Positions 5,696 through 44,500 of a stretch of 64,000 nucleotides of DNA are shown here, piece after piece (position 1 is the first letter of the stretch; every line of letters starts with the position of its first letter). Below the pieces are notes generated by a model. That model did not search any database. It was not told the DNA's origin and saw nothing but the letters and a program-made list of their open reading frames with translations. This DNA comes from Schmidtea polychroa (lineage: Eukaryota), in NCBI GenBank assembly GCA_044892525.1, contig CM097885.1:17176001-17240000 (forward strand), read 5' to 3'. The position numbers and the translations under genes were made by a program.

Positions 5696-5799
5696 GCGCA
5701 CACCAACAAAATTCAGTCAAATCATACCGCGCACACAGACGCGATAGAGAAAACGCCAAACCAACTGCCAGTCAGAGGCAATCCCCCGCTGACTGGTCG

Positions 5800-9146: not shown

Positions 9147-9775
9147 AGTAGATGGATTGGTCTCCGCTGGAACAAAGACAAATACCCCCCCCCCCCCCCC
9201 CGGCCGGCAAAATTAAAAAAAATTTCAAGGTCAAATTTTAAACAAAGACATATGACTCATCCAAGGTCATACGACTCATCCGATGACTAATCAAAAAAAC
9301 AGGTATCCGCTGGAACAAAGACATTTATTTTTAAAATAATAATAATAATAATGTCTTTGTTCCAGCGGAGAGCTACTTTTGGTCATGCAACAATTACGTG
9401 ATCCCATCATCTGAATTTATTAAACAATAGCTTATTTTAAAGCCTAGTGCAAGATCTATCTAATGATATATAAATATTATTATTATCATTAATATTGGCA
9501 AAGTTATTAACATTTTCCCGAGACCATTTTCAAGGTCATTTGACTATTTTATTATTATTTTTAAAAATATTATTTTTTCAAGGACAAATTTTTTTTCAAG
9601 GTCAAAATTTTTTCAAGGTCGTATTTTAAAATTTAAAAGTTCCCGCCAACGAAAATTATTCAACGATAGCTCATTTCAAAGCCCAATACGAGACCTTTCG
9701 AATGAACCACATATCTTATTATTAACATTATTATTTCTAAAGATATTATTATTATTATTATTAGTATTAGTATTA

Positions 9776-9808
<33 letters not shown>

Positions 9809-18403: not shown

Positions 18404-19349
18404 ACTGGTTCAGTAATGGCTTTTGCAAATCTTATATCCAGTCGTAAATTTCCATTTTGAGGTAATTGACTTTGATTTAAATCAAAATCAGGGGTTAAAA
18501 CAAATGTAATAAATGGGTATTTGCTTTTAAAATCTTCTAGAGTTATTCCGCAATTCAAATTTTTATCTAAATAACCAAGATTTCTAACAATACTCTGCAT
18601 ATATGTCGCACAGTAATTGTCATTCTCGAAATCTTGAATATATGTTTCTCTATAATCAGTATTTTTCGACAAAGTCAATGATGTAACACCAAAGTTTTTG
18701 AAAATTGAGCTGGAAGCAATATATGATCCATTATATTGTGTTTCACTTTGAAATGTTATCAGAATAAAATTAGGCATTCTTCTGTCACCAAATATTTGTT
18801 CTTTATAGAATGATGAAGCACCTTTAGCAATAGCAAATTGTACAATTTCCTTTGTTTTTAATGGATAAATTGCATGTTTTGAATTAAGACCCAATTGATG
18901 ACCTGCTAATACTGAGGGGTCTACTCGAACTTTTCTCACCAATAATTTTGCATCAACTAATTGACATATTGGTGTAGTAGTTGCACTAGTGAGAGATAAT
19001 GCAGAACCAGACCTTTTCAGTCTAATATGTACATTAACTCCCGGTAGTAAATATTTCGGTTGATCCATAAAATCAAGTTGTAATGATGAGCACATGGTGA
19101 AAACCTTTGAGCCTTTTACCCACTTTTTTCTTTTATCATCTGCTGCTGCATAACCTTAATCTGAACAGTCAATAAAGTATCGTTCAAATCTAAATATTCG
19201 GTTTGTGAACCATTAATATAAAACTCGATATCGTTTCTACTATCTGTAATTGAATTCATAGGTAAAACTTCCTCAAATGCCCCAAATTCTATTACAGCCT
19301 GGGGCGATGGTCTATCAAATATACATAATTCGGATTTACCACAAATCAT
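18404..19349 (-). pseudogene. Maverick major capsid protein, internally deleted and 3'-truncated
   Basis: ORFs 19116-19349 and 18367-19095 match the N- and C-terminal parts of 30642-31862. A ~208-bp deletion is bounded by AACC microhomology. Confidence 0.92.
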
Positions 19350-19717
19350 TTTGCAAATATAGTTCCATGTCCTTTCATTCGTTTGTTTATACGTGATATT
19401 CCATGTCTTTTACGTTTTGGAGCATGAGCTGGAGCTGGAGCTGGAGCTGGTTTTTGAAACATACCTGCAACCCCGGGTAAAACTTTCCCTAATTCTGCTA
19501 AAGCATTTGTTTTTAGAGATGGTAATATTTTCTGTTCATTCATAATAACATCTTTTGCAGTTTTCATACCAAAACTACCGATACGTTTAAGAATAGGCAA
19601 TGCAAATCTACCAATTGTTCTCAACCATCCTGATCCGTACTGTTTACCAATAAAATATGGTAAATCACCACCAGATTGGCTACCACTATACATACTAATA
19701 ATATCAGAATTAGCCAT
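19346..19717 (-). CDS. Maverick small core-like precursor (copy 2)
   Basis: Protein identical to 31859-32230. Confidence 0.85.
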   Translation of the reverse strand: MANSDIISMYSGSQSGGDLPYFIGKQYGSGWLRTIGRFALPILKRIGSFGMKTAKDVIMNEQKILPSLKTNALAELGKVLPGVAGMFQKPAPAPAPAHAPKRKRHGISRINKRMKGHGTIFAK

Positions 19718-20040
19718 TTATTTTACGAAAATGTAATGTCAAATGAGTTTTTGGAAATTCGATTAATTGACCAGAATCATAACTTATATTTATTTCTATA
19801 TTGTTTATACAAGATGTTGAAACAGGTAAATACATGGGATTTTCTACATTGATTTGTACAACTTCATCATGATCATGTTTTTCAATCCATATAGATTTCA
19901 TTAAAGAAACACTAAAATCTCCAACAATAACAGGTGCCACGATATTACTGTAAATGAACATTTGCTGATGATGTTTAAGGATTTTCGGTTTGTTTGTTCC
20001 TTCACAAATTTGTTCATTTTGTGTACATATTGGTTTAGAC
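19710..20040 (-). pseudogene. Maverick minor capsid (penton) C-terminal fragment
   Basis: Matches the C-terminus of 32223-33290 with a 9-bp deletion (GSK). The ORF-track N-terminus is hAT TIR sequence. Confidence 0.9.
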
Positions 20041-22312
20041 CAGGGCTGTCCAACCTCGGGAAACCAGAGGGCCGCAATGCAAAAAAAAACTATTCGGGGG
20101 CCGCACACAATGCAAAGAATTTTTATCTAAAATAAATGGCTAAGGATACCAAAACGCCTGCCTGTACGGAAAATTTTGGACTCAACACCTTCAGTTGTTA
20201 CTAATGTATACTCTGGGGCTTGTTTTGAATTCATTGGATATTTCTGTCTGCACGGCCTGTCTTAGGACCGCACACCAAAAATAAAAATGATATTATGTTA
20301 ATAATTAATTGTACTAATGTTTAAGAAATATTATATGGTAAATATTTGATATTAGATATAGATATTGTCAAGAAATGAAAAATGTTATATTTCAATGAGA
20401 AATTTTCGGTAGCTTTGCATCGTTTACCAGTGTATCGATATCAATTTCAATGTTTGTGGTTGCCAAACGCAGTAAATTTGATAGCGATTTATCAGTCATG
20501 GAACATCTATGCTTTGATTTAATAAACTTCATAGTGGAAAAAGTACTCTCACAAAAGATAAGTACTGCCGAGCATTGATCCGATTTTAAGACCAAAGTCA
20601 CGCAATTTGGGATATCTTACTTCGGATAATAGTTTGAAAAAGTCTTCCCCTGTTTCACATTTATTGGTAAACTGGGGATCAGTTTGCAACTCACATAATT
20701 CTAACTGCAAATCGGACGGCACATTTGCAATACTAATAGTTAAAGGCTGACTAAAAAGTAAAATTTCTCGTTCAAATTTTCCAAAATCGATAAATCGGCT
20801 TTCGAATTCCGCGATTATCCCATCAATATATTCCACATGAGTTAAAAATATTGTGACCTCGGAATTATTCATGTCTTCAAAATGCGCCTTGCAATTAGGG
20901 AAGAAAGTAAAATTATTATTGCTCAATGTTGATTTGAATAACTGCAATTTACTCTTGAAACCTTTGCAATAGCAATAAAGGTTTGCGATATTCTGCCCCT
21001 TACCTTGTAGTTTTAAGTTCAGCGCGTTTAAGTGGTTGGTCATGTCAGTTATAAAAGCAAGGTCAGCTAAAAATATAGGATCCTGCATTTGACGAGCAAG
21101 TTCTTCGGTATCAGACTTTACTTCATTTTGGAGGAATATTGGTATTTCTTTTCGTATAGCAAAAAACGTTCTAAACATTTTCCAGCACTCAGCCAGCGAA
21201 TATCTGTGTGAAGTGTCAAATCACCATATGCAGCATCCATTTCCTCTAAAAAACTCCGAAACTTACGATGGGTGAGGGATCTGTTACCGCCTCGTATCAT
21301 ATTTGTTATTTTTATTGCTACTTTCATAGCATCGGCTTGTCGTAAATTTTTTCCGCACAGTGCTTCCTGGTGGATTATACAGTGCAGATTTGGACATTTA
21401 ATGTTATTTTTCTTCAATAATCCGCAAAAGCCAATTTCTGTTCCAATCATAGCTTTGGCCCCATCTGTAATAATACATGAACACTTATCGAATCCTCCAT
21501 ATAGCATAACATTTTTATGGACAGCTTCAAAAATGTCGCTCCCTTTGGTGGTGTCATACAGAGATTCTAGGCTAAGGAGCTCTTCGTTGACAGTGAAATC
21601 ATTTTGAATAGTACGAACAAATATTAAAAGCTGGCTAATATCTGTCAAATCAACGCTCTCATCCAAACACAGGGAAAAATATCTACATTTTTCCATCATT
21701 TGCAGCAGCTTTTTGGAAACATGTTGGTTCATATCATCCACTCTCCTGGCCATGGTTTGATGAGATAATGCCACGGTGTTGAATTTTTCTGCTATTTTCG
21801 GCTCATTAAATTGTTTGGCCATTTCAATTGCACATTTCTTTATTAAAAGACCATCACTATATGAAGCAGCAAGGCTTTCCGTTTCTGTGGTGTTGAGCTT
21901 CATAAAAAATGTGGGTTGGTGCATCACGTCTTTTTTATACTTTTCAATGATCGATGTTCTGGATTCTCCGATATACGAGTCAAATTTTTCGCTATGAAGT
22001 GATACATAGTGCCTTTTAACGTTATACTCCTTACACGCCGACAAAACTTGCATACAAATTATGCATTGAATTTTATTTTTATTGTTTATAATGAAATAGT
22101 CCGATTCCCACCTGATATTGTACGTTCGATTTTCATTTTCGATTTTTCTTCTCTTCTCAGACATGGGTTTCTAAAAATAAAGAATACAAAGCTATTGTAT
22201 GGCATTGTTAATATCAGTATAATGGAATATAGTCTGAAATTAATTAATACTTGCAGTTATAATATTGATTATAGTTGAAAACAACCCCACACCCTCGTAA
22301 TACATATCCCGC

Positions 22313-22555: not shown

Positions 22556-22865
22556 CAAGGTCATTTAAACAAAGACCATGACTCATCAAGGTCATTCTCA
22601 AGGTCGTATGTCTCATACGATGACTCATCAAGGTCATTTTCAAGGTCATATGACTCATCCGATGAGTCATAAAAATTTTCAAGGTCATTTAAACAAAGAC
22701 CATGACTCATTCAAGGCCATTTCCAAGGTCATATGACTCATTCAAGGTCATTCTCAAGGTCATATGACTCATTCAATGTCATTCTCAAGGTCATATGACT
22801 CATACTATGACTCATCAAAATTTTTCAAGGTCATCTGAGTCATCGCGATGAGTCATCAAGGTCAT
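22556..22865. promoter_or_regulatory. Dense array of TCAAGGTCA and TGACTCA motifs in the Maverick terminal region
   Basis: About a dozen (T/C)CAAGGTCA-like and about eleven TGACTCA/TGAGTCA motifs in ~310 bp, plus AACAAAG. Confidence 0.6.
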
Positions 22866-23031
22866 ATTATTATTTTTAAAAATATTATTATTTTTAAAAA
22901 ATATTATTATTTTTAATTTTTTCAAAGTTCCCGTCAACGAAAATTAATAATCGATAGCTCATTTTAAAGCTCAATCCAAGGCCTTTCGAATGAGCCATAT
23001 ATCTTGTTATTAAGATTATTATTTCTAAAGA

Positions 23032-23598: not shown

Positions 23599-23824
23599 GT
23601 CATTGATATAGCTGCATGCTCACTGCAGACTATATAAAAATCACTATTAAATATAAAAAATTATAATAAAACAACAAATACTTGAAATAATTTAAAAAAA
23701 AAATCTGATTACAAATTTTTATTCAATATGTATATATATAAATACAAGTTATAATACATGTTATAATACAAGTTATAAATACAAGTTTTTGTAAATAAAA
23801 GTTTCTATACAATTTTCAGTTGTC

Positions 23825-26800
23825 TTATTGATCTTCATCCCATTCGCTGTCGTCGAAACTGGGACTTGGAGCTGCACTGAATTCCTCATCATATTCACTT
23901 AATTCGTCAACTCCTAAATTGTGCCCAAATGCGTAACTTATGTTTTTGCCTAGCCACGCGCGCTTATCATCATTATTACTTAGGGCAATTTTCGAATTTT
24001 TAAAAGTAAAAAGTTGGTGATTTCTAGTACCTATTCTAGTCTGCGGTACAGAAATCACCTGATTTGAATGAAAGCAATTTAGATATGTTTCATGATTTAT
24101 TGATGTCCCTGGTAATTTAACCCCCTTCGCTTTTACCGTTTCCTTACTACCTAAAAGACTATAACATTTAGGGCGTAAGAAAACCCATTCGGAATAACCT
24201 AATCCCTTGCTCTCATCTTTAAACTTCCCGATGACAGAGTCAAGGTTCCTATTATACAAGGGGTGTGTTGGATCGTAATTTGACGTATCCAATAAATTAT
24301 CAGAGATCATCTGAGGTAATAGAGTTGTTAATTTTAAATTTTTTATTTCCAAAAAGAAACTGTCGGTATCACCGGCAATAATATTTATAATACATTTATA
24401 TTGACGTCTGTACTTCTCCAAATCAATGTATTGGAGCTGGTACATCCGCAGTTTAGACAGATCTAGTACTGTTTGACCAATGTAGCTAGGTCTGTCTAAA
24501 CAAATTGAATCTTTTTCCAAATGTGCCGCAATCAGATCGTTATCGATTCTTATAGACTTTCTGAAAGTCGGCTTTGAGGAGTATACTATCATCTTTTCGG
24601 ATGAATTACACAACCTCAAATTCATTCGTTTTTTCAGATTTTCAACGGATTTACCGTACAGACTGTTATTATACAATTTAAACAAGTCCCTATATATCTC
24701 GCTAGTAGACTGAGATCGTAAAGTGGTGTTGGTGTCTATGTAGGATTTAAAGATAGGTCCTTGTTTAAACTTTATACATCTATGAATATTTACAACAACC
24801 GCACCTAATTCTATATACAATTTGAGAAGCCTCCAATGAAGAACATAGTTCCTCTTTGGCCAATGCGTAAGCATAAGCTTCTCAACTTTTGAATTAGGCG
24901 GGCACAACTTTTCCGGCGCAAGCGGAAAATCATTCAAAAAATCATGCACACATTCCGGAATATCGATATCGACCTCCATAGTATACCCATATGGAAGGTT
25001 ATCAATATCCGTGTTCATACATTCAAGTAAAACATCATTCAAGTTATTATTCACCCAAGAAAAATCACCATACGGAAGATTTTGGCTAAGAGCCCAACCA
25101 TACAGATTATTTATATCAATGTACAATAATTCTGTATCATCTGAAGTAGCCGTGTAATGTTTGTTAACAAATGTTAACCCACCCCGGATACCTCCCTCAT
25201 AGAAATTATACATTTCCATGTCCTGCAAAAGTTCTATGGGTTCCGTTAATGTCATAAGCGCTGAGGCCCATGACATACCGGGAATCCCGTAGAAATTAAG
25301 AGGATCCAGACCATTGTAAGCAATTGCCTTACCGCGGAATTGCTGAAAATAGTCTGCGAGGAGGTATACGTCCAATTTTAGGTAGATTAACATATAATCT
25401 AACAAATTATTACAGTTATGCTGACTCCACATTATTTGAGCCTCAGCGTACTGATCTTCCGTAACATCAGACCAAATAGGAGGTAATTCTAAAGTCGATT
25501 CAAGAACATCCAAAGAAGTAGCGAAATTATATGGAAAGATACCTTTAGAGTGAATCATCGACCCTTGAAAGACAGACGAAGTTAACGGAAAAGTAGTAAG
25601 TGTTTTCACAGCTTTTGCTAAAGAACAATTAACAAATTGCATGCTGTCAATAAAACGAACAGGCAATTTGTTAATATATGCAATTAAAGATATAAATTTT
25701 TCTGTAGAGGTAGGTATAATATTAAGTTCCCAAAGGGGAAAATCACTGAGACCATGTTTTAAAATATGGTGGAGGTCATAGCCTCGTAAATTATGAAAGA
25801 CTACTGGTAACAACTTATTAATCCTGCGAGAGACATTACATTTCCTACATGCCGCTCCGACATATCTACCTGTAAAATGGCAATGATCTCTCACAGGATT
25901 AATAATAGCTTTTTTACACAAATAACAAATAGTACTAGATCGAAAGGCACGCTCCTGAGCAAAAGACAAAGTAGACATACCTTTATGACCTTCAAGTTCA
26001 TAATATGGCAGGACAATTGTGACAGCAATTTCCTCCACTTTCCTCAAAAAATCCAAAATACAATTAGGTCCAAAAAAATAATAATAAAATTTAGTGTTTG
26101 TATAATTATTATTTAATAAAAGACCTGCTGATATGGGTAAATGTATTTGATGATATGTTTCATGTTCTGGTAAAACCGATTCAAAATCGGCATAAATTAC
26201 GAAGGGAGGTGTAACGGTTTTTGCGTAATCTGTGAATAATAAATCCTTATTTTTAGGAAGTGTATACAAGGTTGTGCCAGTCTGATTTTTACAGCATAGA
26301 GCAACATGCTGATCGAAAGCATTCTTATATCTAAAGCCATTTAAACAATGTGGGCACCAGTTACACCTTATTTGAACATTTACATTTTCATTTAAATGAC
26401 AATTCATTAATTTGTCCAAGTCTGTCACTGCCGTATAATGATATTTATCTTTATTACTCAAAAGTAATAAATAAATCGGCCTACCATCTATAACCTTGGA
26501 GCGATGTATGATATTAAGATGAGGGTGGTGAGCTACATAATTCTGAGAAATATCACTATCAGAACTGGCTGGATTATACGAAAGAACGTTTATGCTTAAT
26601 TTTAAATCACGATTTTTCCTTTCAAATTTGGGAATGTTACATAGCCTCATCGGGCAATCTGTGTCTTCATCATAATTTAATAGAGGTAAAAATTCTATAT
26701 ATTTGGCGGCTCTTTGGTGATTACGACCTATTTCTTCTCTTTTTAAAAGTGCAAGAATGCTATATAAGAAACACTTATGGTCGTTGTTTTTAACATTAAT

Positions 26801-28543
26801 TATTGCATGTTTTAATTTTAATGCAGATGGGGTTTTTATATAGCTATGTCCGGATAATCTACTAACGGGTGCGTATTTCGTTAAAATAAAATCTATCTCT
26901 AAAATATTTAATACTCGCCACGCGCTTCCTAAATAAGTAAATTACTCAATCTTTTCATTTAATTTGCTCACCCCCTCGTTTATAAAGTTTGCTGTAAAAA
27001 CTTGAGCATTGTTTGAAAAATAATTATCCTGGATCTCCCCATCTTTTTAAAATTTAATTAAAATTGCAAATTGAATTTTTACATTGCCCATCTTTTCTAT
27101 TTCCGCTATTAATCTTTCTTCAATTTTTGATGTTAGGGCTATTTTTACTAAGTTTTGATTTCTTATATCAAATTTTAAAGTTTTTCGCGATCCGTTCAAA
27201 TCGGATTCTACCATAGGTTCAAACAAAGAGCCGCCTATTTGATATATGTTGAAAGACGTTGAAGCTACACATTCATCATTGATGACTATCACTTCTTGTT
27301 GTGTAATGGGTGTGTGTTGTGTAATGGGTGCGTGTTGTGTGAAAGATGTTGAAGCTACACATTCATCTTTGCTGATGACTATCACTTCAGGTCGCGATAA
27401 TTTATTCGGAATATAATTTTTAATTAAACCAGCAGGTCTTTTAATCGAATCTTTTTTAATATTTATAATATCTTTTTTAATAATATTTATAGTATCTTTT
27501 TTAATAACATCTTTTTTAATAGAATCTGTTTTTTCTTTTATAATATTTTTTTTAATATTTTTTAAATCTTTTTTAATATCTTTTTTTATATCTTTTTTAA
27601 TAGTATTTTTTGGTAAATTTTTTGATAAATTTTTTTGTAATTTTTTTTTATTTATTTTTTTAAATAAAACATTTTTTGATATCGAAAATTGCCCTAAGTG
27701 ACTATGATGTTTATTAAAAAATTCCCTATATTTTATTTTTTCGCTCGTTACACATTTGGGGCATATAAAAAAGTTGACCGAATTAAACTTTTTTCGGTAA
27801 TATTTTCTCATTGTATCATGACAATCATCGTTATGACCAATTGAAGATTGGCAATAATTCGGGTATAGTATACCTGTTAAATAATAAAATTAAAATTTTA
27901 TTGTTTTTTCTATATAGAAAACTAATTGTTACTTCTACAAGGATTTATCATCATTTGTTATATAGTTCATTTGAATTAAATAACAAATGATGATAAATCA
28001 TTATAGAAAATAGGTTAATATATTCGATAGAATATTAGAGAGATTTTAGTAGACGGGGTCTGATTATTATTTATATATTATTATTATTATTATTTATATT
28101 ATTATTATTATTATTATTATATAAAAGAAAAGTAGCTGCATGCTCACTGCAGACTACTATGTAGCTGCATGCTTACTGCAAACTACTGTAGACAGGGTCT
28201 GATTATTATTTATATATTATTATTATTATTTATATTATTATTATTTATATTATTATTATTTATATTATTATTATTTATATTATTATTATTATTATTATAT
28301 AAAAGAAAAGTAGCTGCATGCTCACTGCAGACTACTATGTAGCTGCATGCTTACTGCAAACTACTGTAGACGGGGTCTGATTATTATTTATATATTATTA
28401 TTATTATTATTATTTATATTATTATTATTATTATTTATATTATTATTATATAAAAGAAAAGTAGCTGCATGCTCACTGCAGACTACTATGTAGCTGCATG
28501 CTTACTGCAAACTACTGTAGACGGGGTCTGATTATTATTTATA

Positions 28544-28613
<70 letters not shown>

Positions 28614-29748
28614 ATTATTATTATTATTTTAACTATTGTAGATGCACATTGCAAACTACAAGGATTTATAACCATAATTTGTAATCACTTTTTAAATATT
28701 TTGATAATAATAACTTTCAGAAACTTAGTATAATCATTTTCATCATAATTTTGGTTGTAAATCATTTTCATCATAATTTTCGTCATATTTTCATCATAAT
28801 TGATTTTCATCCTATTTTCATCATTTTCTTCATCATAAATTCATAATTTTCTTCATCATCATTTTCGTCATATTTTCATCATTTTCTTTATAAAACATAT
28901 AATCATTTTTCTTCATAATTTTTCGGTATATTTTCATTATAAATCATAAAATCATTTTCTTCAGAAGTTTCATCATAATTTTTATTAAAATATTTAAAAA
29001 AGTTTTTTATCAAAATATTTAAATAAGTTATTACAAATTTAACATATAAATAAAAAACAAAATATATATATAAAAATAAATATTTCTTACATTGTGATTC
29101 CATGTCGGAATCATTCTCAGAGATTTGCCCATCATTCTCTGAGATTTGATCATCATCCGATGAGATTTGCCCATCATTCTCTGAGATTTGATCATCATCC
29201 GATGAGATTTGCCCATCATTCTCACAGATTTCACCATCATCCGATGCGAGGACATTAATTTCTTCTTCGTCAATATCAACATTTAAAACATTTTCTGAAA
29301 TGAAAATTAATTTAATAGAAATAATAATAAAATTTACTTTTTTCTTTGAGAACTGGGGCATAATTAGGGGCATCAGTTTGCCCAATAAAGACGACATCAT
29401 CGTCGCTATTGTAAACATTTTCTGAATTGAAAAAAAAAATAATTTAATAAAAAAAATAATAATAAATTTACCAAAGATCTTATTAGGAGCATTACTTTCC
29501 CCGATAAAGACGACATCATCGTCGCTATTTGAAGCATTTTCTGAATTGAAAAAAAAAATTAATTTATTAAAAATTATAATAATAAATTTACCGAAGATCT
29601 TATCCACTGTTAATATCGAGTCATCTTCCGTTACATCGTACCAATCGAATGGTTCTAAAATAATAAAATAAAATATAATAAAATAAAATAAATTACCCAT
29701 TGTCGTCAAAAGATTTCTTAGAATTCCATTTTTATTATTGTTAGCCAT
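23825..29748 (-). pseudogene. polB: Protein-primed family B DNA polymerase; predicted 6-exon gene (~1506 aa) with two premature TAA
   Basis: Core 23825-26650 has IYADFES, FHNLRGYD, YIDINNLYG, KLYNNSLYGK, GDTDS and RPKCY, plus an endonuclease VII-like CYLC..DHCH.TG...CRKCN. The same frame extends upstream through TAA at 26944 and 27049 (GSAW, SYIKTP, AIINVKNNDHKCF) into ORF 27047-27811. Predicted exons 29748-29697, 29654-29592, 29540-29472, 29421-29338, 29294-29091, 27873-23825. Confidence 0.9.
28049..28620. repeat. Tandem repeat of ~150-180 bp units with variable TTA tracts, inside predicted PolB intron 5
   Basis: Three full units of gtagac(g/a)gggtctga-(tta)n-ataaaagaaaagtagctgcatgctcactgcagactactatgtagctgcatgcttactgcaaactact, plus a partial fourth. 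Confidence 0.9.
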
Positions 29749-30070
29749 TTAGATTTTTAAAATTGAAATTGAAATTTGAAAAATTTTGAAATAATTGTGA
29801 CAAATTTTAGATTTGTCAATGTTTATAAAGAGAATGAATATTTTCCTGTCCCAGCCAATGAGAATATAGACACACACACATATACATTGAATATTTTACT
29901 CTCTCAACCAATCACACGCATGCATGTATGTAATGTAAATCAGTCAGAATTACATGTGACTGCCTTTGTTAGTCATGCCTTTGTTAACTTGCACTGTGCA
30001 TGCCTCATGCAAAGGCAGTCTTTATGTTACAAATAATAATATTTATTAGAATAATAATAAAATTAATAAT

Positions 30071-30641: not shown

Positions 30642-31862
30642 TTATACCAACACTGTTCTATTTGCAGTAATTTGAACTTCATTTTCAAATACTCCATATA
30701 TTATAACATGTACTGGTTCAGTAATAGCTTTTGCAAACTTTATATCCAGTCGTAAATTTCCATTTTGAGGTAATTGACTTTGATTTAAATCAAAATCAGG
30801 GGCTAAAACAAATGTAAAAAATGGGTATTTGCTTTTAAAATCTTCTAGTGTTATTCCGCAATTCAAATTTTTATCTAAATAACCCAGATTTCTAACAATA
30901 CTCTGCATATATGTCGCGCAGTAATTGTCATTCTCGAAATCTTGAATATATGTTTCTCTATAATCAGTATTTTTCGACAAAGTCAATGATGTAACACCAA
31001 AGTTTTTGAAAATTGAGCTGGACGCAGTATATGATCCATTATATTGTGCTTCACTTTGAAATGTTATCAGAATAAAATTAGGCATTCTTCTGTCACCAAA
31101 TATTTGTTCTTTATAGAATGATGAAGCACCTTTAGCAATAGCAAATTGTACAATTTCCTTTGTTTTTAATGGATAAATTGCATGTTTTGAATTAAGACCC
31201 AATTGATGACCTGCTAATACTGAAGGGTCTACTCGAACTCTTCTCACCAATAATTTTGCATCAACTAATTGACATATTGGTGCAGTAGTTGCACTAGTAA
31301 GAGATAATGCAGAATCAGACCTTTTCAATCTAATATGTACATTAACTCCCGGTAGTAAATATTTCGGTTGATCCATAAAATCAAGTTGTAATGATGAGCA
31401 CATGGTGAAAACCTTTGAGCCTTTTACCCACTTTTTTTTTTCATCATCACTGCCATAACCCATAGGAGTAAGACATGTATTTTTAGTATCGGAATTGTAA
31501 TTTAAAATAGTTTCTATTAATGCCTTGTGAATGAATGTATTATTTCCGCCCTCAATCTTGATATTATTAAATCCCAACACTGCATCTTTAAAAAGAGTAT
31601 GAAACAGGAAATTGTTCGGTATTACATCTGCATTGGCATCCAAAACTTTTCTATCTTTATCTACAACCTTAATCTGAACAGTCAATAAAGTATCGTTCAA
31701 ATCTAAATATTCGGTTTGTGAACCATTAATATAAAACTCGATATCGTTTCTACTATCTGTAATTGAATTCATAGGAAAAACTTCCTCAAATGCCCCAAAT
31801 TCTATTACAGCCTGGGGCGATGGTCTATCAAATATACATAATTCGGATTTACCACAAATCAT
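30642..31862 (-). CDS. Maverick major capsid protein (double jelly-roll, hexon-like)
   Basis: Intact 406 aa with KSELCIF, YLDLNDTLL, NNFLFHTLF, QPKYLLPGV, FVLAPD and GNLRLDIKF. Lies between core-like gene and protease; ATGA overlap with the upstream gene. Confidence 0.9.
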   Translation of the reverse strand: MICGKSELCIFDRPSPQAVIEFGAFEEVFPMNSITDSRNDIEFYINGSQTEYLDLNDTLLTVQIKVVDKDRKVLDANADVIPNNFLFHTLFKDAVLGFNNIKIEGGNNTFIHKALIETILNYNSDTKNTCLTPMGYGSDDEKKKWVKGSKVFTMCSSLQLDFMDQPKYLLPGVNVHIRLKRSDSALSLTSATTAPICQLVDAKLLVRRVRVDPSVLAGHQLGLNSKHAIYPLKTKEIVQFAIAKGASSFYKEQIFGDRRMPNFILITFQSEAQYNGSYTASSSIFKNFGVTSLTLSKNTDYRETYIQDFENDNYCATYMQSIVRNLGYLDKNLNCGITLEDFKSKYPFFTFVLAPDFDLNQSQLPQNGNLRLDIKFAKAITEPVHVIIYGVFENEVQITANRTVLV

Positions 31863-32230
31863 TTTGCAAATATAGTTCCATGTCCTTTCATTCGTTTGTT
31901 TATACGTGATATTCCATGTCTTTTACGTTTTGGAGCATGAGCTGGAGCTGGAGCTGGAGCTGGTTTTTGAAACATACCTGCAACCCCGGGTAAAACTTTC
32001 CCTAATTCTGCTAAAGCATTTGTTTTTAGAGATGGTAATATTTTCTGTTCATTCATAATAACATCTTTTGCAGTTTTCATACCAAAACTACCGATACGTT
32101 TAAGAATAGGCAATGCAAATCTACCAATTGTTCTCAACCATCCTGATCCGTACTGTTTACCAATAAAATATGGTAAATCACCACCAGATTGGCTACCACT
32201 ATACATACTAATAATATCAGAATTAGCCAT
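31859..32230 (-). CDS. Small basic core-like precursor with protease cleavage motifs
   Basis: QSGG|D and QYGSG|W followed by an amphipathic helix and a basic tail KRKRH. Conserved position before the MCP. Confidence 0.75.
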   Translation of the reverse strand: MANSDIISMYSGSQSGGDLPYFIGKQYGSGWLRTIGRFALPILKRIGSFGMKTAKDVIMNEQKILPSLKTNALAELGKVLPGVAGMFQKPAPAPAPAHAPKRKRHGISRINKRMKGHGTIFAK

Positions 32231-33290
32231 TTATTTTACGAAAATGTAATGTCAAATGAGTTTTTGAACCTTTTGGAAATTCGATTAATTGACCAGAATC
32301 ATCTCTTATATTTATTTCTATATTGTTTATACAAGATGTTGAAACAGGTAAATACATGGGATTTTCTACATTGATTTGTACAACTTCATCTTGATCATGT
32401 TTTTCAATCCATATAGATTTCATTAAAGGAACACTAGAATCACCAACAATAACTGGTTCCACGATATTACTGTAAATGAACATTTGCTGATGATGTTTAA
32501 GGATTTTCGGTTTGTTTGTTCCTTCACAAATTTGTTCATTTTGTGTACATACTGGTTTAGTCAATCCTAATGTTTTTGTCAAATTTGAGTCAAATTTAAC
32601 TTGACTAAGATTAGAATTTATACTAAATCTAAATACTTTATCTTTTTGAAGCTCAAAAACTGTTAAAATCTCGCTACAATTGTCACCTAAATAAGTTTGT
32701 AATTGTTCGAGGTCTGTAATATATAAATTATCTTTAAAAGTATATGCATGCTCTGTTATTTCAAAGTATGATAGCTTAAATTTGAATTCCACTAAATTAT
32801 TAGTTTTTGGAAGTGTAGAGAGATTTATTTTGACTGTATCATTAAATACATTACGTAAATCAGTAAATCCAAGACGTTTAGCATCAGCCACTGTAGAAAA
32901 TATAATTTCGAATGGCTTATTCAAGCAATTCATGTATAAATATTGACCATCATCATAAATTATAGGTTTCCTTGATTTCGATGAACTCGTCAAGTTATAA
33001 TTATCTTTATCAATAAGAACACTAATATATTCCGTTACTGCTACTTTCTTATTATATTCAATAACAGATTTGCTATAGATTGGGAATAAATTGTATACAA
33101 ATGTAAAATCCAACAGAGCAACTTCCCAGTCATTATCCAAATAGATGGGGTTTTGGAGTTCGATGATGAATTTGCTTGCTTGATTTTCTGGATGAATTAA
33201 TGGACAACTATTGCTCGGCAAAATAGTATAAAAATTCACTTTACTATGTCTTTTGCTGATATCCATGACGGGTTTTGATAACCATGCCAT
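32223..33290 (-). CDS. Maverick minor capsid protein (penton)
   Basis: FYTILPSNS, WEVAL, FIYSNIVEP.IVGD..VPL, NPMYLPV, IRDDSG..I.F, LHFR. The true start is probably near 33239 (GTG AAT TTT overlapping the integrase stop). Confidence 0.88.
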   Translation of the reverse strand: MAWLSKPVMDISKRHSKVNFYTILPSNSCPLIHPENQASKFIIELQNPIYLDNDWEVALLDFTFVYNLFPIYSKSVIEYNKKVAVTEYISVLIDKDNYNLTSSSKSRKPIIYDDGQYLYMNCLNKPFEIIFSTVADAKRLGFTDLRNVFNDTVKINLSTLPKTNNLVEFKFKLSYFEITEHAYTFKDNLYITDLEQLQTYLGDNCSEILTVFELQKDKVFRFSINSNLSQVKFDSNLTKTLGLTKPVCTQNEQICEGTNKPKILKHHQQMFIYSNIVEPVIVGDSSVPLMKSIWIEKHDQDEVVQINVENPMYLPVSTSCINNIEINIRDDSGQLIEFPKGSKTHLTLHFRKING

Positions 33291-33868
33291 TTGACATAGT
33301 ATTGTTTATCCTTACCGACCATTTTAGTTTTCAATATTTTTTGAATTCTAAATACTTTTGGGGGAGGAATGACTTGTAATTCCTGCTCATAAAATTTCCC
33401 CTGTACAATATTATTATCATTGTCTTTGATGACATACATTACAGGATTCTGTTTAGTATTTATTTTTGAAATTACAAAGACTTCATCACTCCAATTTGTA
33501 TCAAAATTTTTAATAAATGGTGATGCACTAATTTTACTAATTCTAACATGATCACCGACTTTATATTTAGGTTTTGTAATTTTTACAGATTTCTTAGAAG
33601 TCAATGATGTTTTTGATGTAATATCAACCGGTCTCAATCCATTCAGTCCTCGATGTGATGAATGATTATAACTTGTTATTATTTTCGGTAAAGCATTTAC
33701 CCATTTTTTATTACCTTGATGCACGAACAATTTCTTTAATCGATCTCTCAATGTTCGATTAAATCTTTCAACATGGGCAGCTTTGTATTGAGAATGTACC
33801 GAGTAGTGATTTATTTTCAGTTTATCGAGGATTTGCTTAACTTTACTATTGTAGAATTCTTTACGTAA

Positions 33869-33909
<41 letters not shown>

Positions 33910-34294
33910 CCAAATCTGTTTGCAAGTTATTAGGATGTCCATCTTTAAATAAAATATTAATTGCCTTGGACATTTCTTCTGCAGATTTAGCCTTGACTGG
34001 TATTGCTCGTGCAAACCTGCTGTATACATTAATACATGTTAAAATATATTTATTCCCATTGTTAATTTTCGAATAAGGTATCATCTCCATCAAATCCATT
34101 TGCCATAAATCGTCAATACCAAATGTTTTATACGCTCTTGTTGGAAATCTTTTCCGCATCGGTTTGTTCAAACTGTACGCAAGCTGATCTGATAACCACT
34201 TCTGGGTTTCTTTTTTCGAATTCGGAACTCTTTTGTTTTATTTTGCCACTCCACCGAAACCGGCTTCGTCTTCTGGGTTCGTCCAAATCTTCAT
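33236..34294 (-). pseudogene. rve (retroviral-like) integrase with C-terminal chromodomain; premature stop and a probable 45-nt intron
   Basis: The frame starts MKIWTNPEDEAGFGGVAK*NKRV..KWLSDQLAYSLNKP at ATG 34294, with TAA at 34240-34238. Motifs WQMDL, LQTDLG^KEF, VERFNRT and YYVKWHGY. The insert at 33909-33865 is GT...TTTTAC. Confidence 0.9.
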
Positions 34295-34906: not shown

Positions 34907-35533
34907 TCAACTTTGTTTATAAACCATGGCACCTTTTGGGTTGAAAATATCTGTTTTTACTCGTAAATCATCGGGGCATTGTTGTGTGAAATCAAGAAAT
35001 ATATATCCATGAGGTATTTTTGTAGCATCTTGAAATGCACTGATAAGAAAATTACGATTGTTAGGGTATGCTTGACGTGCAAGAAAATCAATCACTGTTG
35101 CATCTCTAGGATTCTTGAAAATAACTAAATATTGTACATTTAAATTACGTGTTCGATGTGCCCCACCTTGATGAAATAGATTTTGTGTTATGAAAATAAC
35201 TGTTACACCGACATGTCTGCTGATCTTTGTAAATAAATTATTAAAATCTTTTTCTTTATTAGCTTCTTGATACAAATCATCAATAATAATGACATCACCC
35301 TTCTTTAATCGGCTGGACCAGTTTTTATCAAATCCCTTTACTATTTTCATGTTTTTTAATTTACAGAAACTTGATTGAGTTAATCCATGTTCTTCATCAG
35401 CACCCCTATGCCAATAAATCCTGTTGAATTTTGATTTGAATAAATTGGATTTTAGTAATTTACAAACAAATAATGTTTTTCCACTACCACTCGGACCAAC
35501 GATTTGGTATACTGCATCATTTCTTAATTCCAT
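34907..35533 (-). CDS. A32/FtsK-like genome packaging ATPase
   Basis: Walker A GPSGSGKT, Walker B IIIDD, SRH..VTVIFITQNLF, FKNPRD and PHGYIFLD. Confidence 0.93.
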   Translation of the reverse strand: MELRNDAVYQIVGPSGSGKTLFVCKLLKSNLFKSKFNRIYWHRGADEEHGLTQSSFCKLKNMKIVKGFDKNWSSRLKKGDVIIIDDLYQEANKEKDFNNLFTKISRHVGVTVIFITQNLFHQGGAHRTRNLNVQYLVIFKNPRDATVIDFLARQAYPNNRNFLISAFQDATKIPHGYIFLDFTQQCPDDLRVKTDIFNPKGAMVYKQS

Positions 35534-35632: not shown

Positions 35633-36070
35633 ATGTTAGCAAATATAAATTATCGAGGAAATTTTGATGTATCGAATATGAGGTTCCCACCAGGGAAACC
35701 CCAGCAAATTATCGATAGAAGTGGGAAATATCCGATAATATTTTTCAAGACTGGTAAATGCAGAATCATGGGATGTAAGAAACCTTTGGATATTAATAAA
35801 TTACAATATCGAATAAATAATATTACAATCCAATCAATTACCGTTACTATGGATATGGGAAATAGTATCAATCTATATAACATGTCGAAAAAATGTGATT
35901 GTATGTTTGAACCGGAATTGTTTCCGGCACTAAGACTATTAAAATATAACCCTATATGTGTCAACGTGTTTGCTAGTGGAAAGGTTGTCATGCTGGGGTT
36001 GAGAAATTTGGAGTATAGAGAATTTGTTGACAATGTTCGAAATGAGATAATTTCATTGGTCGATTTCTAA
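35633..36070 (+). CDS. TATA-binding protein (TBP)-like protein encoded within the Maverick
   Basis: Repeat 2 ITIQSIT...INL...FEPELFPAL...VNVFASGKVVMLG compares with TBP FKIQNMV...IRL...YEPELFPGL...LLIFVSGKVVLTG. Repeat 1 IIFFKTGKCRIMG compares with ALIFSSGKMVCTG. Intact 145 aa. Confidence 0.88.
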   Translation: MLANINYRGNFDVSNMRFPPGKPQQIIDRSGKYPIIFFKTGKCRIMGCKKPLDINKLQYRINNITIQSITVTMDMGNSINLYNMSKKCDCMFEPELFPALRLLKYNPICVNVFASGKVVMLGLRNLEYREFVDNVRNEIISLVDF

Positions 36071-37975: not shown

Positions 37976-38180
37976 ATTATTATAAGAACTTTTTTCAATT
38001 TTCACCACTGATTCCTTTTCAATTGACATTGTATTTATCAAAAAAAATAGACTATGAATCGGTAAAGATATCGATGTTTTTTTGATATATTTACGGATTC
38101 ATAGTCAAGCTTTTTTAATAAATACAATGTCAATTGAAAAGAAATCAATGGTGAAAATTGAAAAAAGTTCTTATAATAAT
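37976..38180. mobile_element. Palindromic MITE/foldback-like element
   Basis: Long imperfect inverted arms around a very short centre (attattataagaacttttttcaattttcacc...ggtgaaaattgaaaaaagttcttataataat). Confidence 0.7.
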
Positions 38181-38509: not shown

Positions 38510-41500
38510 TTATTCACAAAATCTTATTTCATTTCTTAGACTTTCTTGGTAAAGTAAATCGTTTCGAGCGTCTCTCAATTGATAATGTTTATTTCCTCTG
38601 CAAACCTCTTCATTGAATTTGTCTCTTACAACTTTGCGCGGTATTTCTGGTCTATCAGGAAGAATTCTCTGCTGATTTCTTGGCAGTTGAGAATTCCACT
38701 GAATCCATTTTTCTCGGCAGATGTTCTCATGGATTCCAATGGAATGTCTTGTGAAATACCTTCCACAAATGTAACAAACAATTCCTGGCATTGAGCCAAG
38801 TGGTTTTCTATTTGACTCTTTTAGAGCTTCCTCGCATTCTTCATAATTGCTTATGATAAGCTGCTTTTGAGTTCCATTGCACCATTTTTGGTGTTCGTCG
38901 ACTCTTTGTTTAGGAATCCATTTTTGGCACATATTACAACAGAAATTGATAAAGTCTTCTTGGAAATTTGTTTGCAAGGATAAATTTTTCATAATTTCCT
39001 GCATTGGAATATCAACACAGTTCGATGTTTTTACTATACTTGGAATAAACGGTTTATATTTGATATGGTAACACTTCAGGAGGATATCAACCAGTTCGAT
39101 GAATAGGGTATTCATCACAGCATCGTTTACCAAAAAGTCCACTCTATCACTTAACATAGTATTCAATGTTTCTTTAGTTTCCTTTACCGTGGGGATCTTA
39201 AATCCAGATAGTTCATTAAATCTATCATTTTTATTCGATTTGTCTGAATCCTCTGGACATTTTAATTCAGAATTTCCTCCCTTCCCTTTATTATCACATG
39301 TCTCATGGCATTTGCAATTACACGTATCTTTACATTTGTTTCTCCCTTTATTTTTGCAATCGCAAATGCAGGAATCTTTACAGGTGCAATGTTCTTTTTC
39401 CTTGCATGCACATGGGCAAGTTTTATTAGTTCCTTTATCAGCTGCCTTATTTTTTTCTAAACAAGGACACTGGCATTTGTCACTATCTTTATCTTTATTT
39501 TTGTCTTTATCTTTATCATTATCTTTATCTTCTTTTTTATCTTTTTTTCCAGTTTCATTGTCTTCATCCATACATTTTACAACAGGTATTTTTGTTGATA
39601 AGCTTCTATCTAGTCGTCCAAATGATTTACATTTAATGGAGACATCAATTGATGGAACTTTTCCTTTGCCCGTTTCACTTGGTGGACATCCATAAACTAA
39701 ATCTTGATCCATGTGAGTAATTACCGGGGAGTCACATATAACATTTTCAGTTTCAGGATTGCTGTACAACATATCATTTTCATTTTTTGGAACTATTTCT
39801 GAAGTAGCACTTGTGGTTTCTTTATAATTAATGTCTACACTATCCTTGTCCTCTCTAATCACCAAGCGAGAATTAAAACTGCTTACAGCTTTATCGGTAC
39901 TTGCTTCATTTATGTCGTTATAAGATCCTTCTTCATAAGGTAAATCTATTTCACGCTGATTGAATGAAACAGCTTTTAATTCTTTTGAAGGCCCTCCTTT
40001 ACCGGTTGGATCTTTCAAATCTTTTTCTAATATTTTCTCTCCTCGTCGTTTATTTTCGTCTACAACTGCTTTTACTGATTGATATGGTAAATATATAACT
40101 TTGTTCATGATTTCAATTATTTCGGTTTCATCCGGTAATTGAAGTGATAATTTATGACCCTCGCGTCTACTCTTAGGGTGATTAGCTTCAATAGACTCTT
40201 CGGGATTATCATTTAGCATTTGCCTATTTGTTAAGTATTCCATATCGAATCGCTTATATGCAGAAGGAAATTCATACTTATGATAGTCTTCATAGATGTG
40301 AGGCTCGTTAAGCTTAACTTCTCCATGATATTTATGAGGAATTCCTTCCCATGGTGAATCGCCATACTGAGGTTTTGAATACCTTTTATCTCCTTTTATC
40401 TTAGCAGGAGATTTACTGTCTGGAGATTTTTTAGGTGCATCTTGAAACGCTTTTTGTGGTTTAGTGGTTTTCATAGTATCATAGGTTGTACCTTCACTTT
40501 CGATCTTTGGAGCGGGTTTTACATTCTCAAATATCTGTTTAGGTATTTTTCTTTCACTTTCGATCTTTGGAGCGGGTTTTACATTCTCAAATCTCTGTTT
40601 AGGTATTTTTCTTTGACAACACTTCGATGGACCCAATTGATCACTATCTGCTCGTCGAAAATCCTTTTGGTTGCGATACTTTGGATCATCACTTTCAATT
40701 TGTTGAATAGTTTTCAAACTGTCATATTTTGACCGTGGAGACTTTCTCTGACAACAACTAGATGGGTTTTCACTTTGGGTTCGAGGTTGACTTCTATAAT
40801 GCTTTGAATCGTCACTTTCTATACTCTGTATGGGTTTTAAACTATCATAATTTGGGTTAATAGGTCTTTTTTGGCAACATTTTGACGGTCCACCTTTATT
40901 TCTCTTAAATTTGGGTTTGTCAGTTTTCTCCAGTGTATCTAAGTCGTCATAATGAGATTTGGGAGATTTCCGTTGACAGCATCTTGTAGTATCACCTTGA
41001 GCCGATGGTTTGGTATTCTTTTGTGGTTCATAATTATATTTGGGGGGTTTATAGCTGTCTTTCACAGTTGTCTTTCTGCAGCATTTAAACAAACAAGTAC
41101 TATTCTTTCTCGATTGTGGGAAATCTTGAATGTTTTTACTTTTCTTTACAGATGAAAATCTGCGTATACTTCTATCGTCTGTCCTAACTGATACTTTTGA
41201 ACAACATTTTGAAGACGTCTTTTCAGAGGAATCTATCGGTTTTATTTCTTTTATTTTATCAAAATCAACTTGATATGTAGATTCTTCCTTATCCCCAAAG
41301 CTTTCAACTACATTTTCTGTTTCATATTTCTCTCTCTTATCTTCCTGAATTGTTTTGATTGGGGTTTTTGATTTCTCCTTTTTGCGACACTTATAAGGAA
41401 TACATATGCAAGATGACTTGTTAGAATTGGTTGACTTTTTAATTTCTTGTTTAACCTGTTTTTTTGGAACAGGAGTTGGAATTTTATCACTTTCATCTAC

Positions 41501-44500
41501 TATATATGGTGTTATAATAGGGGTGCTATGATGGACTGATTCCGGTTGGGGTTTAGTATTTTTGAAAGATCTTCTTGGTAAATAATATTTTGGTTGAGAA
41601 CTAGGTGTTGATATAGGTGCATGATCTTCAAATGTTTCATAGGTTATTCTAGGAGGTGGAGGAGGTGGTGGTGGAGGAGGAGGGGGAGGTGGAGGAGGGG
41701 GAAATGATTCTTTAAGGAGTACAACACTTTCTTCCCTTTCTAATTCAATCTTTTGATATGGGGTTGGAATTTTTAAAGAATCTTTAGATTCCTTTTTGAA
41801 AATGGATAATTCAATAAATTCATATATATCCGGTTCATTTTCTATAGACTGAATTGGAGTGCTTGTGACTGGATGCATAGGCCGAATACTAGCTTCTTTT
41901 TGTAAGGAAAGTGGATCACGAATAGGTTGGTAATCTTCATGAAAGTCCCTTATTTCAGATATTGATTTTGAGGGGTGAAAACACGCAGAAAAGCACATTC
42001 CTTTTTTGCTGTCTTTCCTTTGATTAGGTTTCCGTTCATTGTATTCAAAGTTTTTATACATATTTATTGTGTTATCCTTTTTATTAAGGTTTTCAAGCTT
42101 TCTCATTTCGTTTTGAAGTATCATTTCGCTCATTTCGGTTTCAAAATACATTTCCGCTTCAAATACAATGGTGTCTTCTTTTTGTTCTTCTATAATGTCA
42201 TCGATATCAGAACTAATGTAAGAAATTGGTTTTTCAGTTGGAGGACCCCATAATTTAGACTGCCTAAAGCCTTCAGTACTTATTTTCTTTTCAGGTGGAC
42301 GCTGAATTTTCTTTTTCTTAACTTTATTTGTTCTCATACCTTGACCAATGCTGTTATCTTTCTTCGATGGAGGATCGTCACCTCTTTTAGGCATATTTCC
42401 TTTCAAATCTTCTTCAATAAAATATTGTTTAGTCGGTTCTTGATCTGCAATGTTTATGCATTTTTCTTTAATGGATTTGTTTGAAAACCTTTCTGGTATT
42501 CGTAATATTTCCGGTTTAACGTCTGCGATGAAAGTTTCTTCGAATTTAGGAAAAGGCTTAATTTCATTAAATGTTTGATTATAGACGGCTGGCTGTTCCA
42601 TTTTAACAGTTGGTGGAAGTTGTACTCTGCAGTCAGCTATGTTCAAAGATTTACATTCAACTCCAGTTGGAGCTGTTGGTCCAAATCTTTCGGCAATTCT
42701 TAACGGTGGGTGCTCATTTTCAAATTGCTGATGAATGATTGATTCTTTAACAGGAATGATTTTCACATCAAAACTATTTTTTGATGAGTCTTTTTTGTCA
42801 GATTTTTTGTTTAAATTATCCCACTGTTGGATTTCGATTTCCACCAGTTCAACTAATTCCTTTTTCAATCTATCATCAATTTCTTTAGTGTTTAAAGGAA
42901 TCTTTTCTCTATTTTCTAAACTCGAACCAGACGCTTTGCTTTTTATTAAGTCAGCTGAATCGGATTTTCTATCTCTTTGACCGTCCATCGAAGATTTAAG
43001 TCCGATTCTTTTGTTTTGAATGTCATATTTTATTGACCTTTCTTCAATATTTGATCCTTTTGGTTCTTGTTCATTGACAAATGTTACTGTCTTTAATATT
43101 TGAACACTGTCCTTCGATGGAACATCATTACTATCATTACTTCTCCTATTATTTGGATAACTTATTTCTTCTTTTATACTTTTCGCTCCTTGCAAAGTAT
43201 CTAACATGGATTCTTTATTATCAATAATTTTCGATAATTCTTTTTTAATTTTCTCTCTAACCTGACTTTGAGGAACTTGGTTTTCCAAAGAATCAATTTT
43301 CTTTGAAGAAGACCTTTTAATTTTACCCAGGCTGTCTGATCGCTCGATTATAAATTCTCTTTTTATGGAATCTGAATTCGGTTGTGATCCTTTTTGGCGA
43401 ATTTCTTGAATTGAAATAACTGACTCATTTTTTGCTTGCTCGAAAGATGGATTGCTTCTAAATTGTGGTATCTTTTTATTGTTATCTGTGATAGCACATG
43501 ATTCGACTTTCATCTGGACAGATATCTGACTATCTTGACTACTCGAACTCAGTATGGATGTCGAAATTACTGGTCCAGATTTCTGGACTTCTATCACTCT
43601 ACTTCTTGTACCATCGGAAACTGCGGATGTTGAAATTACTGGTCCAACATTAACTAGGGATTTCTGGACTTCTATCACTCTATTTCTTGTACCATCAGAA
43701 CTTATCCTCACCCTTTCACTGCTGTCGTGTGAAATAACTTTTGCTGGTTCTATCGTTTGTTCTTCCTTTACGTCATTATCCTTTCCATCTAAACGGATTC
43801 GAATATTTATTTCATCTTCCGAACCAAGATGAATTACATCAAAATCTTCATCTTTGGATGAAATATAATTGTAATCCTTTGTAAATAAAACAGTCTCTGG
43901 TTCTTTAATAGTAATATTCTCATTTTGAAATGTGATTTTATCCGTTTTAATTTGGTCGCTATATCGCTTGGTCATTTTGATTTCATTTGGTGGTCTGCTT
44001 TCAATCTCTTTGATTCGAATATTCTCGTTCTCGAAGATAACCTTTTCCGCTTTCAAAGAATCGGTATGTTGTCGATTTACTTTGATATCTCTCGGTGGTT
44101 TGCTTTCAGTTTTAAGGTTTTCACTCAGAAACACGATTTTATCTGTCTTGATGGAATCACTATTTTGTTTATTTGTTTTTGAGACTTTTGGTGATTTGCT
44201 ATCCGCTTCTTTGATTTTGATTTGGATGTTTTGTTTCAATTTGTCGTCCTCATAAATGTTCATGTCTAATATATTTTCACTAGCTGCTGGTGATTTTTGA
44301 ATATTTGAACCTTTCATTGCTTCCGTTGAGATAATGTCCCAATTCTTTTGATAATTGCGATCAAAGGTTTCTACATTCGACAATTTCATATTGATACTTT
44401 CCGCTTTGATTCCAGAGGACCTTTTGCCGGATCGAGTCGTGAAAAGTTTTTCTTCGATTTTTTTCATTATAATCTTGTGAAGAGGTAACGATTTAGTTGC

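Follow-up and report, generated by a model that had tools for sequence, protein, structure and literature searches.

The protein-primed family B DNA polymerases (pPolB) of Maverick/Polinton elements (adintoviruses) have the domain order TP-vOTU-EXO-PALM, i.e., terminal protein (TP), vOTU protease, exonuclease, and palm, and a cut by the vOTU protease behind the terminal protein has been proposed (PMC11161782; PMC8502044 for the system). Intact vertebrate Mavericks have been described as having intronless open reading frames (ORFs) (PMC8097293). The gene analyzed in this work occupies positions 23825 to 29748 of the reverse strand in a 64,000-nt stretch of the planarian Schmidtea polychroa (assembly GCA_044892525.1, contig CM097885.1, positions 17,176,001 to 17,240,000; referred to as the window, whose numbering is used throughout). 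It shares with the Maverick/Polinton pPolB the domain order, the catalytic Cys/His of the vOTU, and the linked capsid, integrase, and ATPase genes but differs in having five spliceosomal introns and a variable exon number. We read it, with a probability of roughly 0.7, as a dead Polinton polymerase gene that would be spliced by the host to encode one polyprotein, whose acidic leader has likely grown and shrunk by intron-spanning duplication and is a predicted SUMO binder.

Spliced replication genes are already known in adenoviruses, which tempers the interest of this layout: the E2B mRNAs for pTP and polymerase use small upstream exons and a long intron (PMC11304566). There, as here, replication genes of a related virus group reach the main exon via small exons and a long intron; however, pTP and polymerase are separate in adenoviruses, whereas the planarian leader is fused to the terminal protein and its small exons multiply. 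Spliceosomal introns within polinton-like elements are also found in dinoflagellates, where maverick-polinton-like elements carry introners, which are transposon insertions acquired mostly after integration (PMC11957031). In contrast, the introns described here are short, AT-rich, and of host type, are common to diverged families, and were apparently multiplied by local duplication. No account of this layout was found in a literature search that did not extend to Repbase, where exon annotations may exist, and no relevant intron passage was found in PMC10748475 and PMC11131425.

An original prediction, made from the letters of the window, had proposed a six-exon gene of about 1506 residues with introns exclusively in phase 1, joining three ORFs into one. 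Exon lengths, intron ends, phases, and codon count all check out: the five introns are GT-AG and of phase 1, the spliced exons sum to 1506 codons plus a stop, and the peptides and intron ends that had been quoted match the sequence. The six-exon gene is thus confirmed as an observation, and its first interpretation is partly supported. In the window copy, the introns have a GC content of 0.05 to 0.19, compared with 0.29 to 0.40 for the exons. The leader contributed by the small exons has 157 residues and is fused to the terminal protein, and the full domain order is acidic leader, zinc finger, linker, terminal protein, vOTU, exonuclease, and palm. A 281-aa ORF at 28903-29748 was rejected as an artefact of read-through across introns.

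Two in-frame TAA codons, at 27049 and 26944, interrupt the gene model. Among 59 sister loci picked by similarity, 57 cover both positions, and both are sense codons in all 57, as had been predicted for stops private to this copy; 6 of the 57 are open for at least 1338 codons from the start of exon 6. Since both stops fall within the terminal-protein domain and the remaining 941-aa ORF from 26650 lacks the vOTU catalytic Cys, the Maverick/Polinton polymerase gene of the window is dead. In a tree of 42 core segments, a sample biased toward cores resembling that of the window, its core groups with another leader type (support 100/97), and the copies are therefore seen as mosaics; leader types on different cores require 8 label changes against a minimum of 5. 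On this tree, the window copy is a recombinant.

Support for splicing emerges from the comparison of copies, which were divided into exons and introns by a parser that is blind to frame and uses only GT/AG and GC content. In the similarity-picked set, 48 of 49 parsed rows had all-phase-1 layouts (window included; 11 of 60 rows were unparsed). A second set was picked by the promoter and comprises 90 loci from the first 100 listed promoter places, the window copy among them; 75 of these were parsed and 15 were not, and 51 of the 75 were all-phase-1. In this set, the length of small exons after the first was a multiple of three in 240 of 265 cases, versus 69 of 265 for the short introns, and when counted by distinct haplotype this was true for 194 of 214 small exons over 59 exon-length haplotypes. 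Exon 2 showed proportions of synonymous (pS) and nonsynonymous (pN) differences of 0.70 and 0.13 over 38 distinct sequences, corresponding to a ratio of nonsynonymous to synonymous substitution rates (dN/dS) of about 0.07 (a rough value; pS is near saturation), and shifted frames reversed the pattern. Polymerase families at 74% and 58% core protein identity retain both the promoter and the phase-1 small exons. The short leader introns are similar in size to the introns of host SUMO genes (about 43-50 nt). In a family of seven loci (L091, L110, L111, L146, L147, L154, and L175), the promoter motif is retained and the three phase-1 small exons are not acidic; the polymerase is 58% identical in the four loci whose length allowed a comparison.

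For the long intron 5, both splice sites were recovered in 76 of 119 loci, at lengths of 279 to 3080 nt that fall into all three classes modulo 3. The codon created across the junction is Cys in 73 of these 76 (the three others, which look like mis-picked donors, were retained in the count), and it completes a zinc-finger Cys-x6-Cys that matches the homologues P0011 and P0017. The frame past the last small-exon donor stops after 2 to 76 codons in the 76 loci, so that there is no conserved stop for the leader alone. Twenty codons of the zinc-finger exon precede its first Met; they align with the Cys/His module of homologues and are under purifying selection (pS 0.55, pN 0.17), and an in-frame ATG upstream of this Met is absent from the unspliced DNA of 96 of 96 copies. 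The splice from 29091 to 27873 is thus supported by the junction Cys, the zinc-finger alignment, and the selected codons ahead of the Met. From these sequence comparisons, we hold the splicing model of the gene to be correct with very high confidence.

The origin of the leader can be traced in the window copy itself, where self-alignment reveals two tandem units at offsets of 119-120. The repeat unit of about 120 nt comprises the last 12 nt of exon 2, intron 2, and the first 57 nt of the motif exon, which makes exon 3 a hybrid. When each is taken together with the 14 nt that begin the following exon, introns 2, 3, and 4 are paralogues of one another (0 of 1000 shuffles reached their scores), whereas intron 1 is not detectably related to them. 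The five phase-1 introns are hence not five independent events, since introns 2 to 4 share their phase by descent. The claim that exons 3 and 4 are tandem duplicates together with their introns stands as far as the duplication across an intron is concerned but not for whole exons, as the breakpoints are exon-internal. The proposed growth of the acidic leader by duplication is borne out both by these units and by the variable exon number of the sisters: of the promoter-picked copies, 45 are in phase and have at least four small exons, and 9, 32, 3, and 1 of these have 1, 2, 3, and 4 middle exons, respectively. The two sets together show at least five breakpoint classes (short exon-2 end, long exon-2 end, whole exon, last-exon start, and truncated exon), and in some copies the motif is repeated within a single exon. 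The distinct breakpoints imply what appear to be separate duplication events, and expansion of the leader by tandem duplication across an intron is very likely. An intron-spanning duplication, or an unequal crossover between copies, would survive only if its exonic length is a multiple of three, and every new intron would consequently inherit phase 1. The family shows intron gain by duplication while it is still under way, and a single genome contains intermediates with 5 to 8 exons. As in the intron gain by tandem duplication of exonic proto-splice sites (PMC2891723), local duplication creates a new intron position, but here an existing intron would be copied with its flanks.

The duplicated part carries a possible function. 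Exons 3 and 4 each contain a core that resembles a SUMO-interacting motif (SIM), i.e., four hydrophobic residues with an adjacent acidic run, and both match a reverse-type SIM pattern; 1-2% of shuffled exons match any of three SIM patterns. The linker of exon 6 contains a further SIM-like pair (EVIVIS and EVIVIN), of which only one matched the regular expression. Such motifs are placed differently among families: they lie in the small exons of the 74% families and in the big exon of the 58% family. Proteins with multiple SIMs and viral SIMs are known, e.g., ICP0, BGLF4, and LANA (PMC12751080), and share with the leader a hydrophobic core beside an acidic run, repeated in a disordered region. 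A literature search whose results were judged by title gave no paper linking SIMs to Maverick or adintovirus proteins. The host has two near-identical SUMO genes (L196 and L197), found by pattern, whose exons match flatworm proteins; a family search for host SUMO gave ubiquitins. The SIM-like motifs are predicted to bind SUMO on the strength of a motif match, and SUMO binding by the leader is proposed tentatively, with a chance slightly under even. At least 150 ubiquitin-like matches were seen genome-wide, many within open frames of 300 to 1400 codons, which suggests a repeat family with fused ubiquitin domains.

Several observations weigh against this reading. Decay or misparsing left 24 of the 75 parsed promoter-picked loci without an all-phase-1 layout. 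As evidence, the junction Cys counts for less than it seems to, because the intron begins with GT and an unspliced reading also yields Cys. Over the A-rich linker of exon 6, 30 of 53 sisters are out of frame; these shifts are located in A runs of 8 to 12 and, as no donor-like site was seen there, this points to run slippage or assembly error. A hidden intron in this linker was rejected, given that the region is A-rich rather than T-rich, has no donor-like site, and shows many indels that are multiples of three. The RNA support is thin. Contigs of four sequencing runs were compared with 29070-29432 only (X1, 14; X2, 0; X8, 16; X4, 726), and that runs X1 and X8 are RNA is a guess. In one 118-nt X1 contig (depth 6), two motif exons belonging to a sister subfamily are directly joined; these exons occur in the intron-containing form in 7 of 197 loci and in the joined form in 0 of 197, and an exact search of the genome for the join gave 0 matches. 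No exact intron-containing variant of this contig was found in the assembly, most X1 and X8 contigs retain intron sequence unspliced, and, within the comparison, there was neither a junction for the window copy's own subfamily nor a contig across the long intron. As for SUMO, 7 of 51 in-phase copies lack a small-exon SIM match, a number equal to the size of the non-acidic family, and 5 of 29 homologue N-termini match a SIM pattern set chosen post hoc (shuffled mean 2.1; 20 of 500 shuffles as high). Furthermore, SIMs are loose motifs and common in viral proteins (PMC12751080).

According to the preferred reading, host RNA polymerase II would start at the TATA-like motif, the spliceosome would remove the five introns, and the vOTU would cut behind the terminal protein, following the model of PMC11161782, so that the protein linked to the 5' ends of the genome would retain the leader and zinc finger. 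Several SIM-like motifs would then tether the element to SUMO-rich nuclear sites, and their number would tune avidity. Should the motifs bind SUMO, the leader would connect these elements to host nuclear control in a way that can be tested; PIWI silencing has been reported for planarian Polintons (PMC8532177). A wider version, which we regard as unlikely, is that a clade of Polinton-type viruses exploits host splicing for an exon accordion, in which repeated duplication of an intron-plus-SIM unit adjusts the number of SUMO-binding sites on the terminal protein at the ends of the genome; the element would thereby be directed to sites of SUMO-dependent silencing or repair, or be protected from them. 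In this version, the phase-1 introns of the clade, among them the differently placed ones of metagenomic relatives, would all derive from one ancestral intron next to the zinc-finger array.

These metagenomic relatives are three contigs at 40-45% identity (L213, L221, and L224) with 4, 3, and 3 short AT-rich phase-1 introns, respectively, one of those in L221 having been assigned by eye. Their introns sit just ahead of the terminal protein and, in L221 and L224, behind the zinc finger; L213 has two duplicated 66-nt exons. Tandem zinc fingers are found in several homologues, and a single ancestral intron in the array could therefore have ended up on either side. In relatives of the same clade (L204, L205, L207, and L214), the frame runs uninterrupted from a Met ahead of the zinc finger, L212 and L217 are not interpretable, and the N-terminal frame is unbroken in 32 of 34 distant loci.

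Among the alternatives, the gene may be spliced as modelled and the number of motif exons may be neutral, with a disordered leader in a slippage-prone, recombining multicopy family tolerating in-frame duplication. This is possible, at odds well short of even: unrelated repeats (periods of 24 to 90 nt) likewise lengthen exon 5 and the linker of exon 6, copies with a single motif exon are common (9/45), and copies recombine. However, the same hydrophobic-acidic motif lies within all five breakpoint classes, its core is conserved (a comparison biased by segments chosen on the motif), and the family without acidic exons has such motifs elsewhere.

It is rather doubtful that the acidic leader binds another host partner, acting either as an acidic transcription-activation surface together with the zinc finger or as an Atg8/LC3-type site, the class to which we presume the acidic W-x-x-V of exon 2 to belong. 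In favor of such a partner, exon 2, and not a SIM-like exon, is the most fixed (63 nt, with the low dN/dS given above), and the element carries a TBP-like gene; but it is the SIM-like exon that is duplicated, and the II(I)SD-acidic cores of the diverged families fit the parallel SIM pattern of PMC12751080.

The original prediction had explained the leader by symmetric-exon shuffling, i.e., by exons brought in from elsewhere through intronic recombination, which is now very improbable. All internal exons are indeed multiples of three and of phase 1-1, one class duplicates a whole exon, up to four times, and leader types do sit on different cores (the 8 label changes mentioned above). Yet no imported exon was seen, and the events were local tandem duplications spanning an intron. 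Breakpoints within introns that move a whole exon, as symmetric shuffling would leave, were not the pattern found: they are exon-internal in the window copy and most classes, and whole-exon repeats occur in only one of the five. Moreover, introns 2 to 4 are paralogues, the leader matches are copies of the element (40 scored of 1000 candidates, with no separate search for a host donor gene), and the uniform phase is explained without shuffling, since any in-frame duplication that spans an intron necessarily reproduces the phase. Shuffling is contradicted for exons 3 and 4, which leaves it room only in the origin of exons 1 and 2. That the leader exons are a separate small gene and the polymerase starts at Met 27811 is scarcely credible, for in spite of the length and AT-richness of intron 5, the absence of a contig across it in the comparison with 29070-29432, and some homologues that begin right at the zinc-finger helix, there is no conserved stop past exon 5, and this Met is preceded by a conserved acceptor and 20 selected codons.

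Table 1. Features of the polymerase gene and of the surrounding element, in window coordinates
Feature	Position	Strand	Details
Exon 1	29697..29748	-	52 nt; start codon, Asn-rich; length 3n+1 in sister subfamilies
Intron 1	29655..29696	-	42 nt, phase 1; length variable among sisters; not detectably related to introns 2-4
Exon 2	29592..29654	-	63 nt; most conserved leader exon (F-D-W, V-T-E, L-N-V-x-x-I-F)
Intron 2	29541..29591	-	51 nt, phase 1
Exon 3	29472..29540	-	69 nt; hybrid of acidic SIM-like motif, then copy of exon-2 end
Intron 3	29422..29471	-	50 nt, phase 1
Exon 4	29338..29421	-	84 nt; second SIM-like motif and original exon end
Intron 4	29295..29337	-	43 nt, phase 1
Exon 5	29091..29294	-	204 nt; acidic; 21/42-nt tandem repeats; repeat unit differs by subfamily
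Intron 5	27874..29090	-	1217 nt, phase 1; simple repeats and three 79-nt repeats
Exon 6	23825..27873	-	4049 nt
Tandem unit 1	29484..29603	-	exon-2 end, intron 2, and 5' part of motif exon; self-alignment, offsets 119-120
Tandem unit 2	29365..29483	-	contains intron 3; self-alignment
Zinc-finger module (Cys/His)	27680..27873	-	start of exon 6; first Cys codon spans intron 5 junction; profile of 22 homologue segments, E 1e-16
Lys/Ile-rich low-complexity linker	27260..27679	-	ends in SIM-like EVIVIS and EVIVIN; many 3n indels, A-run slips in sisters
Terminal-protein domain	26870..27193	-	little-finger-like fold; 4ir1 Z 8.5, rmsd 2.3, 91 aligned
vOTU protease domain	26411..26836	-	OTU folds Z 6-7, about 105 aligned
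Exonuclease and palm, protein-primed family B polymerase	23825..26410	-	motifs DFES, HNLRGYD, DINNLY, KLYNNSLYG, AGDTDS, PKCY
TATA-like promoter motif, conserved	29811..29830	-	20 nt; 62 nt upstream of start codon
Major capsid protein	30642-31862		double jelly-roll; Atlas features score 0.98, PF21738 on 65% of that cluster
Small ORF	31859-32230		
ORF, putative penton by position	32223-33290		
Integrase	33236-34159		rve E 1.5e-5 (under curated cut-off) and chromodomain
Packaging ATPase	34907-35533		Pox_A32 E 3.6e-7
TBP-like ORF	35633-36070	+	PF00352, E 7.5e-15
Partial terminal repeat	22556..22900	+	outer end missing in window copy

The domains of exon 6 were assigned by sequence and fold. The polymerase has 2471 homologues at E<=1e-20, many of them with PF03175; the window's own polymerase protein had no PF03175 match. 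Its top fold match is an adintovirus PolB, the polymerase core had no sequence match in the PDB, and Foldseek against the PDB gave no match at E<=0.001. A structure model of 26351-27259, with X at both stops, reached a mean pLDDT of 90.7, and Cys163 and His274 of the vOTU are invariant in 80 sequences. The zinc finger gave only leads below 0.9 in the Atlas search.

The element is a high-copy Maverick/Polinton: it combines a family B polymerase, with TP and vOTU ahead of the exonuclease, with an integrase, a packaging ATPase, and a capsid protein; no maturation protease could be located. The intronless core ORFs of the vertebrate Maverick description, which is not a formal criterion, are not seen here. 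ORF-based annotation splits or truncates such a polymerase, and intron-bearing Polintons may consequently be miscounted as decayed. The promoter motif has 691 exact matches in the genome searched (781 Mb, four large contigs), compared with 0 for a reversed control, and is common to the families with 74% and 58% core protein identity. Sisters have terminal repeats as inverted pairs 9-18 kb apart; the partial repeat of the window copy has no inverted partner within the window.

Additional features were noted in and around the element. The integrase contains at 33865-33909 (-) a 45-nt AT-rich in-frame insertion that starts with GT, lies inside a core motif, and resembles a phase-1 intron; its acceptor is non-canonical in the window copy. 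The 79-nt unit of intron 5 is GC-richer, occurs three times there (28123-28530), and recurs in part past the polymerase stop near 23600-23640. A second copy of parts of 30712-32560 (capsid region) is present at 18404-20038, 97-98% identical and in the same orientation, and 9249-9779 resembles the terminal region. A 2400-codon ORF at 38510-45712 (-), located where the other end of the element would be expected, has no convincing family match and is probably a host gene. An imperfect palindrome of 200 nt (87%) lies at 37978-38178. The stretches 4096-6442 and 21118-22164 contain hAT and piggyBac-type transposase fragments as well as an ORF with a Spin-doc zinc finger.

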